Assembly (NCBI GenBank): GCA_964016885.1
Contig: OZ024760.1
Coordinates: 11,408,001 to 11,472,000 of the forward strand
Origin: Eledone cirrhosa
Lineage: Eukaryota
Direction: 5' to 3'
DNA: 64,000 nt
Under the pieces are notes generated by a model that ran no database searches, was not told the origin of the DNA, and worked only from the letters and a program-made list of their open reading frames with translations. This document shows, piece after piece, positions 4,640 through 44,696 of this stretch (position 1 is the stretch's first letter; the number at the start of each line of letters is the position of its first letter). The position numbers were made by a program, and so were the translations under genes.

Positions 4640-5201
4640 GATCAACACAACACAAACACAAACAACACACACAACACCAACACCACACACCAACACCAAC
4701 ACCAACACCCACCCACAACCACCACCACCTACAACACCACAACACCACCACACCACACCACCTACAACACTAACACCAACACCAACAACACCACCACACC
4801 CACAACACACTAACAACACCACACCACCACACCAACACCACCTACAACACACCAATACCACCAACACCAACACCACCACAACACAACACCAACACCACAA
4901 CACCACACCACCAACACTAACACCAACACCAACACCACCAGCAACACCAGCACCACCTACAACACCAACAACACCAACACCACACCAACACCACCAACAC
5001 CAGCACCACCCTACAACACCACCAACACCACTCACAACACCACCAACACCACACCACCTACAACACCACCAACACCAGCACCAACACCAACACCACCAAC
5101 GCCACCAACACCAACACCACCAACACCAGCACCACCTACAACACCAACAACACAACATACCACAATTAACACCCCCTTCCAACATCACCAACACCAACAC
5201 T

Positions 5202-5235
<34 letters not shown>

Positions 5236-6560
5236 CTTACAACTACATAAAAAGAATTACAACACCCCTTCCAATAACATACTTATAACAAACATAACTA
5301 CACCTCTGATACACAACACCCCAACACCATCACCACCACTAACACCAACACAACACAACAACAACACCCACCCACACCACTCATACCACAACACCACAAC
5401 ACCACCAACACCACCACCAAAACCACACTAAACCCTAACACCACCACCAACACCACCACCAACACTACTACTAACACCACCAACACCACCAACACCACCC
5501 AACCACACCACACACCACAACCACACACCACCACCAACACCACCACCAACACCACCACCAACCACACAACCACTACTAATACCACTACACCACAACACCA
5601 CACCACCACCAACACCACCACCAACACCACACAAACCACAACACCACCACCAACACCACCACCAACACCACTACAAACCACACCACCACCACACCACCAA
5701 TACTAAACCACTAACACACCAACACCACCACCAAAACCACTACTAATACCACTAACACCACCAACACCCACCACCAACACCACCACCAACACCACCACCA
5801 CACCAACACCAATACCACAACACCACCAACACCACCACCAAAACCACTGCTAATATCACTAACACCACTAACATCATCACACCACAACACCAACATCAAC
5901 ACTAATAACAACACCACCAACACCACCGACACCACCAATACCAGCACTAACACCACCAAGACCTCCACTAACTCCACTAACACTCCACTAACACCACTAC
6001 ACCACCAACACCTCTACTAACACCACCAACACCTCCACTACACCACCAACCCACCAACACCACCAACACCACCACCACCATTGACACCACTACTAACTCA
6101 CCAACACCACCACTAACGTACCTAACAATACTTACGAAACTCACAAGACCACCAACAACTCCGCCATCATCAAAATCACTAACACCACAACCACCGCCGC
6201 CACTAACAGTACCTTCAAAACGCACAAGACCACTAACACCACCTCCATCATCACCACATCTCCATCACCATCACCAACAACAGTAACGTCATTAACACCA
6301 CCACCACCACCACCATCACCACAACCACTAACGCCACCACCATCACCACTAACACCACCATCACCACCATCACCACAACCACCACCGCCACCATCACCAC
6401 AACCACTAACGCCACCATCACCACAATCACAACCACCACCGCCACCACCATCATCACCACAACCACTACCGCCACCACCATCACCACAACCACCACCGCC
6501 GCCACCATCACCACCACACACCACCACCATCCACACCAACGAACGCACCTACAACTCCAC
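4640..6560. repeat. Low-complexity CAC/CAA/ACC-rich tract
   Basis: Degenerate trinucleotide repeats with strong A/C skew on the + strand. Confidence 0.9.
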
Positions 6561-7690
6561 GCAACACCGCAAAACCTGCTCCAAGCAATATTACAGACCC
6601 TTCATTTTTTTTTCACTCCTCCTTCCTACAGCACTCACACACGCACACTCTCTCTCTCTCTCTCTTTCTCTCTCTCACACAACACACACACTCTCTCTCT
6701 TTCTCTCTCTCTCACACACACTCTCTCTCTTTCTCTCTCACACACACACACACACACACTCTCTCTCTTTCTCTCACACACACACACGCACTTCTCTCTT
6801 TCTCTCACACGCACACACTCTCTCTCTCTTTCTCTCTCACACACACACACTCTCTTTCTCTCTCTCTCACATACACACACACACTCTCTTTCTCTCTCTT
6901 TCTCTCTCACACACACACTCTCTCTCTCTCTCACTCTCTCTCTCTCTCTGACGCTCCCACTTTCTCTCACAAACGCAACCTCTTTCTCTCTCTCTCTCTA
7001 TCTATCTACCTGTCTCTCAATCTCTCTATCTATATATCTATCTATTTCTCTCTCTCTCTCTCTCTTTCTCCCCCCCCCTCTGCCACATGCTTCTCTTAAC
7101 CCCCTCCCTTTCTAATTATCACCTCTCTCGCCACCCTCCGTCTACTCCAACAAGTGGTGCTATCATTGCCTCTTTCCAGCATCATCATCATCATCGCCAT
7201 CATTAGCATCATCACAATCAATACTTCTCAAAACTATCATCACCACCACCATCATCAGTACCATCACCATCATCATCGCAATCATTAGCATCATCAGCAG
7301 CAGCATCACCAGCACCCTCATCATCGGCATCGTCAACAACATATCGCCGTCGCTAGCATCATCACCACCACCATCATCATCATCAAAAGCATCGTCGTCG
7401 ACATCACCACCACCACCATCATCATCATCAACATCATCGTCGTCGACATCACCGCCTTCGCTAGCACCGCTGCAACAACAACAACAACTTTTGTAGCAGC
7501 AGTAACTGCAGCAACAACAACAACTTCAGTAACAACAGCAACAACAACAGCAGCAACAACAGCAGCAACAACAACAACAGCAACAATAATACCACGAACT
7601 ACTGCAAAAGAATTACAACTCTAGCAAGAACTATAACAAGAGCGGTAAGAAAAAACAGCTGCAACAACAATAACAATTGCAACAGCATCT

Positions 7691-7724
<34 letters not shown>

Positions 7725-7754
7725 CAGTAGCAGCAGCAGCAGCAGCAGCAGTAG

Positions 7755-9209
7755 CAGCAACCTGCAAAAATACCGGCAAAAAAAAAATCATCAAAATCCT
7801 CAAAACCAGCGCCGCTGCCTCCAACGCAAGCATCATCATCATCTTCCTCGGCACTAACAGTCACAATAACACCCCCGCCACTAACTCCCACTTCGCCGCC
7901 GGCCAACACAACAACAAATAGAACAACGACAAGAACAACGACAAGATCAGCAGCAGCAGCAGCCGGCACCGGCGCCGCCGCCGCCGCCGCCGCAACAACA
8001 CCAGCAACAACGACAACAACAAGTACTAATACTACTACTACCACTACAACAACAACAACAACAACAACAGCGGCAGCGTCTGCTGCTGCTGCTGCTGCTG
8101 TTGCAGCGAAATCAGCAGCGTCTTCAGCAACAGCATCACTGTCAACAACAGCACGACGATTATCGACAGCGGTTCCAGTGAATTTCTCGTCACTGTCCTC
8201 ATCGCTTTCCACATCGGTTTTATCGCTATCGCCTCGACAAGCACCACGGAAGCGGGGTCGAAGTCCGCGACCCAGTCCGAGACCCAGCCCGAAACCGGAC
8301 CGGCATCATCACCGTCGACAGCAGCAGAACAAGCCCCAGTCCTCGACGCCATCGAACTTGTTGTCACCCCTGATCTCACAAGCGGCCGCGGCCTTCAAAA
8401 GTCTCCCGTCTTTATCCTCCTCTTCGCAATCGAAGCCCAAAACAACAGCGGCGGCGACATCATCAACATCATCATCATCAACATCAAAATCAAAATCAAA
8501 AACTTCAGCAGCAGCATCATCATCATCATCAACAAGCAAAGGAGTACGTTCCTCTTCACAACGTCCGAAAACAACAACTATAGTCCTATTAGAACCGTCT
8601 GTACAACAACAACAACAACAATCACTACCCTCTCCACGCCGCCTGTCTCAGTCACAACTACTACAACCCCAACCACAACAACAACAACAACAGGCGTCAC
8701 CACAACGCCGTCTCTCTCAGACACAACTACAACCCCTACCGCAACCACAACGTCGCCTGTCAGGGTCACAACTTATACTACTCCAAACACAAACACAACC
8801 ACCACTACAACCACAACGCCGCCTCTCACAGTCACAGCTACTACAACCACAACCAGCACCGCAACCGCAACCACAACGCCGTCTATCTCAATCACAACTA
8901 ATACTACCACAAATACAACAACCACAACCACAACAACAACACACACCACTATCAACACGCCGTTTGTCACAATCACAACTACTACAACAACAACCACAAC
9001 AACAACACACACCACTATCAACACGCCGTTTGTCACAATCACAACTACTACAACAACTACAACTACAACAACAGGCGTGTCCCGTCGCACCGACCCCGTT
9101 CGCCAGCCCGCCACCCTCTTCTTCGGCGGAATCGTCGCCGACGCCCTCTCCACCACCTTCTCCGCGATGTTGTGAGTGTTTTGGTTGCGGCAGTGTGCTG
9201 ACCAGGAGA
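7755..9209 (+). CDS. Putative in-frame low-complexity N-terminal extension of the SCYL2-like protein (S/T/A/P/Q-rich, 7x RRLS(Q)SQL, basic RKRGRSPRPSP, CCECFGC); start not determined
   Basis: Stop-free frame from after TAG 7752-7754 to the SCYL2 Met with no in-frame ATG. The RRLS repeat copies (8637-9047) vary mainly at third codon positions. Confidence 0.5.
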
Positions 9210-9359
9210 ATGGAGGTTTTATCCATGTTAAAACTGTCCTTAAATACGGACAATATCAACCCTATTACCAAACATTACGATATCGGTAAACAGGTTGGCA
9301 GTGCCGGACCAGAAATGGTATGGAAGATCTTCGACGCTGTGCGCCTTGAGGACAATAGA
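9210..9359 (+). CDS. SCYL2: Exon encoding the N-terminus of an SCY1-like protein 2 (SCYL2/bma-type) pseudokinase
   Basis: MEVLSMLKLSLNTDNINPITKHYDIGKQVGSAGPEMVWKIFDAVRLEDNR resembles the SCYL2-family N-terminal motif NP.T..(F/Y)D(V/I)G....S.G....WKIF. It ends at a phase-0 donor AGA|GTAAGT (GT at 9360), just before the expected E-x-x-V-F-x-F-D/E-K segment. Which SCYL2-family paralogue this is cannot be decided here. Confidence 0.85.
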
Positions 9360-9365
9360 GTAAGT
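9360..9365 (+). promoter_or_regulatory. 5' splice donor GTAAGT
   Basis: Consensus donor located where protein similarity ends. Confidence 0.85.
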
Positions 9366-9664
9366 ACAGACTTTAAGTGTTTCTTGTTTTGGTCCTTTTC
9401 TTGTTTTTTGGTATGTTTCTGCTACGTTGTTGTTGTTGTTGGTGGTGGTGGTGGTGTTGGTGTTGTTGTTGTTTATGTTTTTCTTCTTCTCGTCGTTTTA
9501 AATGTTTTATATATTTTTTTATAGAGGTCATTTGTGTTATCAGTTCGATCTCGCTGAAATTATATATATATATATATTTTTATATATATATAAGATCCCG
9601 TTAAGGGTGAAAGCGGCGATTCTTTGCTTAAACTTTAATCTGTTATTTTGATAAATATATATAT

Positions 9665-10849: not shown

Positions 10850-11020
10850 GACCCCATTGTGTTACTGGTACTTTATTTTATCGACACAGTAAGATAAAGT
10901 ACCAGTAATACACTGAGGTCGATTGACGTTCTGAGTTGAAATCCTGCCCCGGTCAACTTTGCATTTTATCATTCCAGGGTCGATAAAATAAAATACCAGT
11001 CAAATACTGAGGTTGACATA
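10850..11020. mobile_element. Rearranged SINE fragments preceding the SINE-derived satellite
   Basis: CTGGTACTTTATTTTATCGAC (minus orientation) followed by CTGAGTTGAAATCC...GGTCGATAAAATAAAATACCAGT (plus orientation). Confidence 0.7.
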
Positions 11021-11021
11021 T

Positions 11022-12215
11022 CAGTACCAGTTAAATACTGGGGTTATACAATATAGTACCAGTTAAATACTGGGGCTATACAATATAGTACCAGTTAAAT
11101 ACTGGGAGTTATACAATATAGTACCAGTTAAATACTGGGAGTTATACAATATAGTACCAGTTAAATACTGGGTTATACAATATAGTACCAGTTAAATACT
11201 GGGAGTTATACAATATAGTACCAGTTAAATACTGGGGCTATACAATATAGTACCAGTTAAATACTGGGAGTTATACAATATAGTACCAGTTAAATACTGG
11301 GAGTTATACAATATAGTACCAGTTAAATACTGGGAGTTATACAATATAGTACCAGTTAAATACTGGATTATACAATATAGTACCAGTTAAATACTGGGAG
11401 TTATACAATATAGTACCAGTTAAATACTGGGTTATACAATATAGTACCAGTTAAATACTGGGAGTTATACAATATAGTACCAGTTAAATACTGGGGCTAT
11501 ACAATATAGTACCAGTTAAATACTGGGGCTATACAATATAGTACCAGTTAAATACTGGGTTATACAATATAGTACCAGTTAAATACTGGGAGTTATACAA
11601 TATAGTACCAGTTAAATACTGGGGCTATACAATATAGTACCAGTTAAATACTGGGAGTTATACAATATAGTACCAGTTAAATACTGGGAGTTATACAATA
11701 TAGTACCAGTTAAATACTGGGAGTTATACAATATAGTACCAGTTAAATACTGGATTATACAATATAGTACCAGTTAAATACTGGGAGTTATACAATATAG
11801 TACCAGTTAAATACTGGATTATACAATATAGTACCAGTTAAACACTGGGGTTATACAATATAGTACCAGTTAAATACTGGGATTTATACAATATAGTACC
11901 AGTTAAATACTGAGGTTAATATAATATTGTACCAGTTAAATACTGAGAGTTATACAATATAGTACCAGTTAAATACTGGGAGTTATACAATATAGTACCA
12001 GTTAAATACTGGGGCTATACAATATAGTACCAGTTAAATACTGGGAGTTATACGATATAGTACCAGTTAAATACTGGGATTTATACAATATAGTACCAGT
12101 TAAATACTGAGGTTAATATAATATTGTACCAGTTAAATACTGGAGTTAATATAATATTGTACCAGTTATGTACTGGAGTTGATACAATATAGTACCAGTT
12201 ATGTACTTGGGTGGA
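11022..12215. repeat. Minisatellite, 30-32 bp unit AGTACCAGTTAAATACTGGG(A/G)(G/C)TTATACAATAT, roughly 35-38 copies, SINE-derived
   Basis: Tandem array. The unit matches the AGTACCAGT...TACTGGGG segment of the adjacent SINE and contains the CCAGT-TAAAT-ACTGG hairpin. Confidence 0.95.
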
Positions 12216-29299: not shown

Positions 29300-31020
29300 G
29301 GTTGATAACTATACCTCTGGCAGCAGATTTTCATTTGTTAACGATATTTCTGGCACAAGGCCTAGAGTTGATAGCTATATTTCTGGTACTAGATTTACAG
29401 ATGCTAACGATATTTCTGGCACAAGGCCTAGAGTTGATAACTATATTTCTGGAACTAGATGTACAGATGTTAGCGATATTTCTGGCACAAGACCTAGAGT
29501 TGATACCTATATTTCTGGTACCAGATCTACACGTGTTGTGCAGGTTTCTGATACCAGATCTACAGTTGTTAAGTATGATTCTATTACCAGATCTACAGTT
29601 GTTAACTATATTTCTGATACCAGATCTACAGTTGTTAACTATATTTCTGGTACCAGATCTACAGTTGTTAACTATATTTCTGGTACCAGATCTACAGTTG
29701 TTAACTATATTTCTGGCACCAGATCTACAGTTGTTAACTATATTTCTGGTACCAGATCTACAGTTCTTAACTATATGTCTGGTACCAGATCTAGAGTTGT
29801 TAACTATATTTCTGGCACCAGATCTACATTTGTTAATTATATTTCTGGTACCAGATATACAGTTGTTAACTATATTTCTGGTACCAGATCTACATTTGTT
29901 AACTATATTTCTGGCACCAGATCTACAGTTGTTAACTATCTTTCTGGCATCAGATCTACAGTTGTTAACTATATTTCTGGTACCAGATCTACAGTTGTTA
30001 ACTATATTTCTGGCACCAGATCTACAGTTGTTAACTATATTTCTGGTACCAGATCTACAGTTGTTAACTATATTTCTGGCACCAGATCTACAGTTGTTAA
30101 CTATATTTCTGGTACCAGATCTACAGTTTTTAACTATATTTCTGGTACCAGATCTACAGTTGTTAACTATATTTCTGGTACCAGATCTACAGTTGTTAAC
30201 TATAATTCTGGCACCAGATCTACAGTTGTTAACTATATTTCTGGCACCAGATCTACAGTTGTTAACTATATTTCTGGTACCAGATCTACAGTTGTTAACT
30301 ATATTTCTGGCACCAGATCTACAGTTGTTAACTATATTTCTGGTACCAGATCTACAGTTGTTAACTATATTTCTGGTACCAGATCTACAGTTTTTAACTA
30401 TACTTCTGGTACCAGATCTACAGTTGTTAACTATATTTCTGGTACCAGATCTACAGTTGTTAACTATATTTCTGGCACCAGATCTATAGTTAACTATATT
30501 TCTGGTACCAGATCTACAGTTGTTAACTATATTTCTGGCACCAGATCTACAGTTGTTAACTATATTTAAGGCACCAGATCTACAGTTGTTAACTATATTT
30601 CTGGTACCAGATCTACAGTTGTTAACTATATTTATGGCACCAGATCTACAGTTGTTAACTATATTTATGGCACCAGATCTACAGTTGTTAACTATATTTC
30701 TGGTACCAGATCTACAGTTGTTAACTATATTTCTGGCACCAGATCTACAGTTGTTAACTATATTTATGGCACCAGATCTACAGTTGTTAACTATATTTCT
30801 GGTACCAGATCTACAGTTGTTAACTATATTTCTGGTACCAGATCTACAGTTGTTAACTATATTTATGGCACCAGATCTACAGTTGTTAACTATATTTCTG
30901 GTACCAGATCTACAGTTGTTAACTATATTTCTGGCACCAGATCTATAGTTAAGCATGTTTCCGATACCAGATCTACAGTTGTTAAGTATGATTCTGTTAC
31001 CAGATCTACAGATGCTTATA
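29300..31020. repeat. 33-bp minisatellite CCAGATCTACAGTTGTTAACTATATTTCTGG(T/C)A, roughly 50 copies
   Basis: Homogeneous core ~29580-30960 with more diverged copies at the 5' edge; explains the long repetitive ORFs. Confidence 0.97.
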
Positions 31021-35416: not shown

Positions 35417-36662
35417 TTGACCAAAGTGGAGCGTCTTCTCTTCTGCTTTTTGTGGAAGGGACGTGCTCCCATGGTCAGACGATCCATTTTCTGTCAACAC
35501 CCGTTGCGTGGAGAACTAGGCATGCCGTGTCTGATGATGCGCAAACCTGCGCTGAGGCTGCGACATCTCTGGTGCTTCCTTGACGGTGAACAGGTATGGT
35601 CGCCGTTTGCCAGACGCGCTTTTCTCTAGCTCGTCTCCTTGACGGAGCTGCAGTCCTGGATCAGGAAAAGACTGAGGGACAGCGCTTGAAAGCTGGAATG
35701 TTTCCAAGCGCTCACCGCCCTCTACCAGCTGGGCACTAGTATCGGTGGAACATCCACTTTGGCGTTCTATAGAAGGCTAGTGGAGGGAAACAGCGACGAC
35801 GTTCTCGGGGAGACCCTGGGCGTCGAAGACAATCAGCTGTTCGCTCTCTTCAAGAGATCTTTCAGACCGGGGCCTATGGACAACTTCCAGAAATCCATGG
35901 CCTGGCAGTGCTACTAGCGTTGCCGGTTCGGGATAAGCTCTACAGGCACGGAGGTGTAGTCAGCCGAGCCTGTCCGAGATGCGTGCAGGGCGACGAAACC
36001 GTCTTGCACGCACTCGTTCAGTGCCCAAGTATTGCTGACTTGTGGAGCTATGTCGAACAGCTGCTGTCGCGTGTAGGACGGATCCGGTTATCGACTGAGT
36101 CGATTGTGCAGATAGCCCCGCCATCCTCCTTTAAAGAGGAGGGAGGGCAGGCAGTTTTCATCTGCCTGGTGGCCACGTCGAAAGAGACTGTGTGGTGGAC
36201 AAGGTTGAAAGGGTTGAAGACGGACACTTTCCTCTCCGGCCAATCCCTGATTAACTTTTTCAAGTTTCACTTGAAGAGTAAAGTCAGGGTGGAGAGGCAA
36301 GTGGTGTCTTCCAGTAAGTTTGTTGAAAGGTGGGTGAAAGTGGCGAGTCTGGTCCGAGTGAACGGGCCCGCTCTGAAGTATACGCCTGCAGACTAAGGAG
36401 TTGGAAAAGTGAGAGAGGGCGCTTGCCCTGGTGGTCAGGGTGGCCGTAGTCTTTTCTGTGGTTTTCACCACGAGTGACCCTCGGAGGTTTCCCCCTTTTT
36501 GGGGAATTTTTGTTGTTTGAATTTTCTTTTTTTTTTCTATCCCGATTTCTATCTTGTTATAACCTATTTACACGACCAAAACCCACTTTGTATCGTCATG
36601 TACTGCTCTGTGCCGTCTGTAATGTTTTTCTTCATGTTAGCCCTTGTGGCCAATAAAGAAAG
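35417..36662 (+). mobile_element. L1/Tx1-type LINE, 5'-truncated and pseudogenised ORF2 (post-RT region plus zf-RVT) with 3' UTR
   Basis: [50 protein letters not shown] and CPRCVQGDETVLHALVQC, with in-frame stops and a frameshift. Stop at 36396; terminus GCCCTTGTGGCCAATAAAGAAA. Confidence 0.92.
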
Positions 36663-42840: not shown

Positions 42841-44442
42841 TTTCTTTTATTTGCCACTAGGGCATCAAAAGTGGGACAAGTACAAAGGGGGGAGTTTACA
42901 CAAAAAGGCGTCCTCAATAAGGAGGAGGCAATAACAAAATATAAAAATAAAATAAGATATAACAAAAAATAAAATTTTTAACAAAATCCTCAATAGAGAG
43001 GAGGCGCCTTGGGGGGTCGCACACACCCCCGAAAAAAGTGTGCAACCCTACTCCTCAGGAGCACAGAGAAGGGGTGCTCCCTTGGTCTTTCATCTTCCTC
43101 ACCTATAGTCTGATGTAGATTGAAGGGCCATTCACACGGGCCATTCTCGCCACTTTCACCCATCTTTCATAGAAACGGCTGGGGTGCAGCACCTCTCTCT
43201 CCATCCTGATCCTTCTTCCGAAATGATATCGGAAGAAACGGACCAGTTGTTGGCCAGAGAGAAAGGTGCCCGACCTCAGTCCTTTCAGACGCGTCCACCA
43301 TACAACCTCTTTCGCCATGGCTATTACGCACAGAAACACCGCCTCTGCTTCATCTTTGAAGGGGGGAGGCGGCTTGATCATTACAATAGACTCGGTGGTC
43401 AACCGGATCGGTCCCACCCTTGACAGCAGTTGTTCGACATAGCTCCACAGATCGGCTACGCCCGAGCAGTGTACCAATGCGTGTGCAACGGTTTCCTCGT
43501 CGCACACGCATCTGGGACAGATCTTTTTGGCGGGGTCCCTACCCGGGCGCCCGTGTCTGTAGAGCCTTTCTCGAACGGGTAAAGCCCCTCGGTAGCACTG
43601 CCAGGCCAGGGACTTCTGGAAGTTGTCCATAGGTCCCGGGCTGAATGTCCTACCGAACAGGCTGGCCAGTTCGTCCTCCTCCATGTCTAGGGCTTCTCCG
43701 AGGGCGTCGTCGCACCTGCTGCGTACCAGCCCTCTATAGAATGTTGCGGTGGAGTCTCCACTGATAACCGGATCCGCCTGCCAGAGGGCGGTGAGCGCCT
43801 GGGCACACTCAGTGTGCCAGGCGCCCAGTTTTCTCGGTCTTTGCTTGACCCAGGATTGCAGCTCGGTGAGTGAGACGAGTCTGGGAAAGGTTCGTCTCAC
43901 AAACGAGGCCCACACCGATTGTCCGGTGAGGAATACGTAGAGGTGCCGTAGCCTTAATGCGTGTTTACGCATCATTAGCCACGGCATCCCCAGCCCTCCT
44001 TTCGAAGGGTGTTGACAGCAGATGGATCTCCTCACCATAGGAGCCCGCCTCTTCCAAAGGAATTGGAAGAGCGCGCGCTCCATCTTGGTGAGGGTTTCCC
44101 TTGGGCAGGGCACTACGGTCAGGCGGTAGTAGATGACGGACGCTATGTAGGTGTTCGCCACCTCCGCCCGACCTTTCAGGGATAGTTTGCAACTGGCCCA
44201 CTTCTGGGTCAGTGCAAACACCCTGTTCGTAACCTCCGCCCAGTTTTTCTCCACCTGGAGGTCCGGTCCGAACCAGACCCCGAGCAACTTCACCGGGCCC
44301 TCCGTCCAGCGTCCGACGACGCCATCGGAGGGCATCGGTCTGCCCCTCCACGTGCCGAGTTGCAAACCGATCGACTTGTCCCGGTTCAGCTTAGCCCCTG
44401 TGAACTTTTCGTACTCCTCCAGTAAGGTGCCGACCGCCTCGA
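42841..44442 (-). mobile_element. L1/Tx1-type LINE, 5'-truncated, with an uninterrupted ORF2 remnant and 3' UTR
   Basis: Starts in the last RT motifs ([14 protein letters not shown]...VKLLGVWF) and runs through LSLKGRA and zf-RVT ([18 protein letters not shown]) to the stop at 43103. Terminus GCCCTAGTGGCAAATAAAAGAAA. Possible TSD GATAGATATAGATA (42825-42838 / 44441-44454). Confidence 0.95.
43103..44440 (-). CDS. LINE ORF2 remnant (C-terminal RT/thumb plus zf-RVT); no true start
   Basis: 420-aa ORF in the track, with the frame extending upstream to the truncation point. Confidence 0.8.
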
Positions 44443-44696
44443 TAGATATAGATAGATATATATATAGAGAGATTTATATATACGTATATATTTATATATG
44501 CATACATGTATATATATACGTATATATACATATATATACGTATATATTTATATATACATACATATATATATATATGTATATATACATATATGTGTGTGTG
44601 TGTGTGTGTGTGTTACACCTGTCAGTCGAAATGTCTGATTAACTCTATCAATACACAGATGCACACACTTACACATGGTCACTCGCACATATATAC

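Follow-up and report, generated by a model that had tools for sequence, protein, structure and literature searches.

Gene identity and genomic context of the pseudokinase exon

The window analyzed here is a stretch of 64,000 nucleotides of the Eledone cirrhosa genome (contig OZ024760.1, positions 11,408,001 to 11,472,000 of the forward strand), and coordinates are positions within it unless another contig or locus is named. A conserved segment of 50 codons at 9210-9359 (+), representing the start of a pseudokinase N-lobe, begins with an ATG in strong context and is 96% identical to the first 50 residues of the O. vulgaris protein P0269. It ends at a GTAAGT splice donor (9360-9365, +), the same position at which the genomic open reading frames of orthologues diverge. 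Homologues, retrieved with either this exon or P0002 as the query, carry the NCBI names 'SCY1-like protein 2' or 'SCY1-like protein bma'. A PDB sequence search with the exon returned nothing meaningful, and Pfam assigned 0 families to the exon together with the open frame that precedes it.

The same genome contains a second, separate gene on contig C15, which is 36-55% identical to P0269 over six exons; it looks canonical, and we tentatively take it to be the canonical SCYL2, in a comparison that held no named canonical SCYL2. In a short, midpoint-rooted tree (24 rows, 51 columns, no named vertebrate SCYL2 included), the window exon falls next to O. vulgaris and P0001 (99/94), within a larger group that holds bma-named insect proteins, and the C15 gene splits off with P0267 (99/98). 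Residues 51-103 of P0269 share 62-64% identity with two bma-named insect proteins and 55% with a third, from a crustacean; identity between P0269 and the C15 gene is 42%. Judged by sequence, the window gene is an invertebrate bma-type SCYL2 paralogue and the C15 gene is the more SCYL2-like of the two, so that the original prediction, which called the gene SCYL2 as such, does not stand in that form. Through NCBI names, the family is linked to Drosophila black match, which one study reports among the hypersensitivity hits of an RNAi screen for thermal nociception in nociceptors (10.1101/053413).

P0269 matches PF00069 at residues 60-314 (E 3e-26), and Pfam reported no HEAT repeats on it. The canonical catalytic motifs of kinases are VAIK, HRD and DFG. 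At these sites the O. vulgaris orthologue, on which the check was made because the matching exons were not found in the assembly, reads ASVF, HRN and GLG, so its catalytic motifs are altered. Exons for O. vulgaris residues 51-272, kinase-domain exons among them, were not found in this assembly, nor were those for residues 273-594 in the stricter whole-protein searches applied to them. Exons on C39 and further along the window's own contig (C21) are 90-100% identical to P0269. The tail exons of this genome (G000), which contain four RRxS motifs, are split between C39:19970-28717 (-) and C21:11572013-11572165 (+), the latter lying 155 kb downstream of the window exon. The missing kinase-domain exons and the division of the tail between C39 and C21 suggest assembly gaps, and an N-run lies near the locus at 2335-2534.

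An open frame of 485 codons upstream of Met 9210

The exon lies within a much longer open frame, which begins at 7755, directly after TAG 7752, and is stop-free to 9524 (+). Its upstream part (7755-9209, +) comprises 485 codons of low complexity, dominated by S, Q, P, T, A and L and including 20 S/T-P sites. A recount agreed with the original prediction that it contains no in-frame ATG before the first in-frame Met at 9210. The sole ATG of this interval, at 9167, is out of frame and opens a two-codon uORF (ATG TTG TGA, 9167-9175, +). A basic, SP-rich stretch at 8232-8303 appears, by eye, NLS-like and contains proline-directed kinase sites.

The strand is C/A-rich over 7755-9209, with 12 stop triplets in these 1455 nt, all of them in the two other frames. 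Given the frame, the probability of its remaining open is 0.019-0.024 under Markov nulls of order 2-5 trained on 7755-9209, and 0.001-0.003 under nulls trained on 7180-9209. A second plus-strand frame over the same DNA (8030-9175) is open for 381 codons and lacks ATG until 9167; there, the changes among the repeats are mostly non-synonymous. Other repeat arrays of the 64-kb window contain stop-free frames of 300-615 codons. Since the probability is close to 0.02, a second frame of 381 codons exists and long frames recur in other repeats, a stop-free frame is by itself evidence of modest weight.

Between 7180 and 9209, a single ATG is seen where 12.3 are expected, an expectation inflated by CAT repeats; 4700-7086 is also free of ATG. 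The region is CpG-rich, with 20-38 CpG per 500 nt; the median of the window is 9, and the 50 kb upstream reach no more than 24. Both the scarcity of ATG and the CpG richness count in favor of the reading preferred below. At 7690-8110, complementary CAG/CTG and TAG/CTA arms make up a long hairpin that, if transcribed, could affect scanning or editing. The strong predicted fold at 7690-8200 (z -3.6) was rejected as a signal, being a product of these complementary triplet repeats.

The RRLS repeat array

Seven motifs of the form RRLS(Q/G)(S/T)QL occupy 8637-9047 (+), starting at 8637, 8706, 8751, 8817, 8877, 8958 and 9024 and set 45-81 nt apart in Q/P spacers. The copies and codon variants listed in the original prediction were all recovered on recounting, with only two amino-acid changes (Q>G and S>T) across the seven. 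An eighth RRLS (8154-8177, +), unrelated to the array, brings the predicted RRxS sites of the extension to 8. Genome pattern searches and protein searches match the array at this single locus alone, and a dispersed repeat element was rejected.

Within the eight-codon core of the motif, third positions vary at 7/8 sites compared with 4/16 first and second positions, and pN/pS is 0.125 (0.132 without the youngest duplicate). Nine of the 12 distinct core changes are synonymous (P 0.0053), a probability that is sensitive to boundaries, the core edges having been chosen after the peptide was known; the synonymous share drops to 0.39-0.64 once flanking codons are included. Across 38 one-kb bins with repeat seeds, the median best-frame synonymous share of the array bin (0.70) is exceeded by only one seed, a poly-Leu repeat. 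The minus-strand frame that shares the variable positions of the array contains stops.

The array has the format RRxSxxxL, which is also that of the motif in the C-terminal tails of the family: across 16 orthologous proteins, 40 of 87 tail RRxS motifs have Leu at +4, compared with a background of 8.5%, and all seven array copies do so. The number of tail motifs differs among species and among isoforms (P0279/P0282, P0290/P0294, P0299/P0300; loci L007 and L008), with 8 and 4 in two Biomphalaria isoforms and 6 and 3 in two from Mytilus. RRxS is the PKA consensus, and the seven array sites are predicted targets of basophilic, PKA-type kinases. None of the fetched homologues carries an N-terminal RRxS repeat array. 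The proposal of selection on protein finds support in the synonymous bias of the core, the likeness to the tail motif and the Cys cluster described below, and is weakened by the fading of the bias in the flanks; the array looks selected as protein, with the signal confined to the eight-codon core.

A Cys-rich segment before Met 9210

Directly before Met 9210, at 9165-9209 (+), lies a cluster of four Cys (9168-9188) followed by a linker, an arrangement like that of the extensions of mollusc orthologues and a predicted site of S-acylation. Of 116 fetched proteins carrying the M[DE] Met motif, 69 have at least 8 residues upstream of this Met. On this comparison Met 9210 is not a universal start of the family, and the earlier statement that family members begin just before the pseudokinase domain proved too general. 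Of 36 non-redundant extensions analyzed, 33 are Met-initiated and 30 have at least 2 Cys within their last 18 residues. Their median length is 38 aa (range 10-181, lophotrochozoans); several are RefSeq models (Lineus, Mercenaria, Mytilus, Patella, Pomacea, Biomphalaria, Haliotis) and the others are unverified genomic ORFs. In mollusc genomic ORFs, the upstream Met lies in the M[DE] frame with no splicing between the two. The annotated models of scallops, Lingula, oysters, a chiton and O. vulgaris (P0269) begin at the M[DE] Met, including 9/9 members of the scallop cluster and 7/7 Lingula members.

When anchored alignments are compared with shuffles, the residue order of the window segment matches P0001 (P 0.001-0.019) and six heterodont or unionid bivalve sequences (P 0.014-0.031), and shows no order-specific match to the gastropod, mytilid/pteriomorph or nemertean groups. 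A pooled HMM of the segment failed as support, with 330/500 shuffles scoring equal or higher. The shared feature appears to be mainly Cys richness, with the order conserved in some lineages only. None of 28 loci without an upstream Met exceeds 2 Cys in 20 codons, compared with 4 in the window.

A Cys-rich segment before a second Met occurs in P0002, P0007, P0011, P0012, P0015, P0019, P0020, P0277 and P0327 as well as at window 9165-9209, and is absent from the scallop, Lingula and oyster models. It would be a wider feature of molluscs and nemerteans, and suggests long, anchored and short, soluble isoforms made from one exon; a search of titles and abstract openings turned up no paper on it. 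In a bivalve-like locus (L027:1470-1537, P0147), an upstream ATG is followed by an in-frame TGA before the Cys segment, a position that the database protein reads as W; this may be a further decayed extension, or else an artefact of gene calling.

An AlphaFold model of the product of 9105-9359 has pLDDT values of 53-62 over its first 50 residues, which include the Cys cluster, and of 84-92 over the kinase strands. Foldseek returned no match to this model at E <= 0.001, giving weak kinase N-lobe rows only. Recognition in the ESM Atlas is low (1423; best match 0.86, unnamed), a measure that, according to the Atlas itself, says nothing on whether a gene is real.

Candidate start codons and a proposed long isoform

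Taken together, the 485 stop-free codons probably code for part of a longer, unannotated version of the pseudokinase, and we lean towards their being translated at present, by whatever start. Of 27 in-frame near-cognate codons, ATA 8580 (8580-8582, +) alone combines a purine at -3 (A) with G at +4, and it would yield an extension of 210 aa; it lies in the 8439-8631 tract, outside the contig comparison described below. It is placed 19 codons upstream of the array and just before the only L[ED] dipeptide of the extension, a weak likeness to the orthologues, 7/33 of whose N-termini have L[ED] within the first five residues. PMC3105428 describes good context as crucial for non-AUG starts. The starts first put forward, CTG 7815 and GTG 8178, both have C at -3 and lack G at +4, and were set aside. 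ATA 8580 is thus the likeliest start on sequence grounds, with an upstream AUG exon close behind; initiation at 8580 would require the 275 codons before it to be open by chance (P ~0.11), which speaks for a more 5' start or for an exon upstream.

Our preferred reading, to which we give a probability of about 0.33, is that the open frame encodes the N-terminal part of an octopod bma-type SCYL2-like long isoform with near-cognate initiation, AUA 8580 being the best candidate. In a transcript that would include this stretch, leaky scanning past AUA 8580 would allow a short form to be made from AUG 9210. The long form would consist of a disordered leader with seven predicted PKA-type sites, a Cys cluster predicted to be lipidated, and the pseudokinase domain. 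The leader may derive from an ancestral Cys-rich extension of molluscs, lengthened by triplet slippage and unit duplication. Phosphorylation by basophilic kinases beside a lipidated Cys cluster might then tune the membrane association of a trafficking pseudokinase, a trafficking role for the window gene being plausible by analogy with its family.

A more elaborate version, in which cephalopod ADAR converts AUA 8580 to AUI and thereby switches on the 210-aa leader, is very improbable. The candidate A sits in a UAG triplet within full Kozak context, and in reporters initiation increased in the order AUA < AUI < AUG, with editing of AUA to AUI raising it ~4.5-fold (PMC13542072). No stable duplex is predicted at 8580, where the pairing probability is ~0.3-0.4, and a search of titles and abstract openings returned nothing on point for the N-terminus of this paralogue or for non-AUG or editing-made starts in cephalopods. 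If this version were true, RNA editing would control a leader that bears seven kinase sites and a Cys cluster for membrane anchoring, in a pseudokinase whose fly orthologue is a nociceptor gene.

Alternative explanations

It is possible, if doubtful, that translation begins at a conventional AUG in an undetected upstream exon joined to this frame by splicing, which would account for the same coding signals, namely the synonymous bias, the tail-motif likeness and the Cys match. Three acceptor-like sites stand out: 7156-7179 (+), the best scoring, at the start of the trinucleotide-rich zone; 8083-8106 (+), in phase 1; and 9170-9193 (+), ending 16 nt before ATG 9210. No donor-like site occurs before 9360. 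The likeliest junction would be at 8106, giving an internal exon of 1.25 kb and explaining the basic, SP-rich stretch and the eighth RRLS as coding sequence; its tract is, however, a GCT repeat, readable as poly-Ala as well. Acceptor-like sites lie 194 nt and 126 nt upstream of the equivalent exon in the bivalve-like loci L023 and L027, so upstream exons probably exist in the family. Against this stand the unspliced upstream Met of the mollusc ORFs and a crude scan of the 57.8 kb upstream, which revealed no convincing ATG-donor mini-exon. ATG-GTAAG sites in L072 were considered as an upstream exon and rejected as GA-rich repeats.

The candidate acceptor ending at 9193 is the strongest counter-argument to any coding reading. 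If it were always used, the mRNA would start its reading frame at 9210, the array would be an intronic or UTR minisatellite, and the Cys codons would be a T/G-rich acceptor tract read in frame. Acceptors in such positions have parallels: at the C15 paralogue, a T-rich acceptor precedes the ATG by 20 nt, and in 10/30 metagenome host loci, which are likely annelids by inference and include some near-duplicates, the distance from the best acceptor-like site to the ATG is 22-29 nt. In the metagenome searches, a single-sequence scan found no relatives among 599 candidates, and an alignment scan found 48 loci among 216, none recognizably octopod. The long open frames in other repeats of the window, the stop-poor C/A-rich strand, the O. 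vulgaris annotation from the same Met, the low ESM Atlas recognition and the blank Pfam result all fit DNA that was never coding. We nevertheless regard this explanation as unlikely; it turns the synonymous bias, the match in Leu at +4 and the ordered Cys match to P0001 into coincidences, and four Cys exceed anything in the 28 loci without an upstream Met. Contigs of four sequencing runs cross the 9359/9360 boundary and are thus uninformative on expression.

Rather less probable is a relic, in which the extension had an AUG start in the recent past, this AUG has since decayed (e.g., to ATA 8580), and UTR or intron now carries the old signature. Such decay would explain all sequence signals with no need for a non-AUG start; a single transition separates ATA from ATG, the ATA sits in full Kozak context, and an upstream Met is used by many relatives. 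The 1.45 kb of slippage-prone repeats have, however, acquired no stop or frameshift yet, and the O. vulgaris model likewise begins at the downstream Met; if correct, that model would push the loss further back in time.

An assembly error, whether a miscalled true ATG or repeat indels hiding an upstream AUG, is improbable: the repeat tracts at 7400-7765, 7920-8111 and 8439-8631 (the last including 8580) fall outside the comparison with contigs, and the locus has the gaps and missing middle exons described above, but contigs from three runs of one sample, possibly the assembly's own, are gapless over 7766-7919, 8112-8438, 8632-8813 (8825 in one run) and 9045-9420. The indel originally suspected at 7690-7790 would have to connect the frame to ATG 7087, the only ATG in 4700-7755, and a simple indel is no explanation because reaching it takes three frameshifts.

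Comparison with known systems

Near-cognate initiation at this locus, our preferred reading, resembles the non-AUG N-terminal extensions described in PMC3105428 in its upstream in-frame stop, absence of an in-frame AUG, near-cognate codon in good context and AUG-poor interval suited to leaky scanning. Those cases rest on conservation of the start codon across species, whereas the extension here is known from one octopod sequence. The human set given there has a median length of 51-65 codons and a maximum of 300, compared with 210 or up to 485 codons here.

The gene shares a nearly identical first coding exon with O. vulgaris P0269 and an RRxS-bearing tail with its bma-type relatives, and would differ from the fetched homologues in its N-terminal array and in an extension of 210-485 aa as opposed to 10-181 aa. 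It resembles SCYL2/CVAK104 (PMC4774220) in having an N-terminal pseudokinase domain, the motif-altered O. vulgaris orthologue being the basis of the comparison. In the same paper, N-myristoylation of SCYL3/PACE-1 provides an earlier example of a SCYL protein whose lipid anchor precedes the pseudokinase domain. The difference is that the window has a Cys cluster, for which S-acylation is the predicted role and metal binding an alternative.

If translated, the extension would be an unannotated regulatory leader of 210-485 aa on an invertebrate pseudokinase that has received little study, and this octopod would have gained another RRxS array at the end of the protein opposite to the variable tail array. 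If untranslated, it would serve as a warning that triplet-rich octopus DNA gives long open frames. Elsewhere in the window, two 33-bp minisatellites lie at 10983-12212 (~38 copies) and 29301-31011 (~52 copies), the second of which yields stop-free frames of 434-615 codons, and 43103-44473 (-) and 35773-36396 (+) hold frames resembling, by eye, fragments from the C-terminal regions of LINE-type reverse transcriptases.
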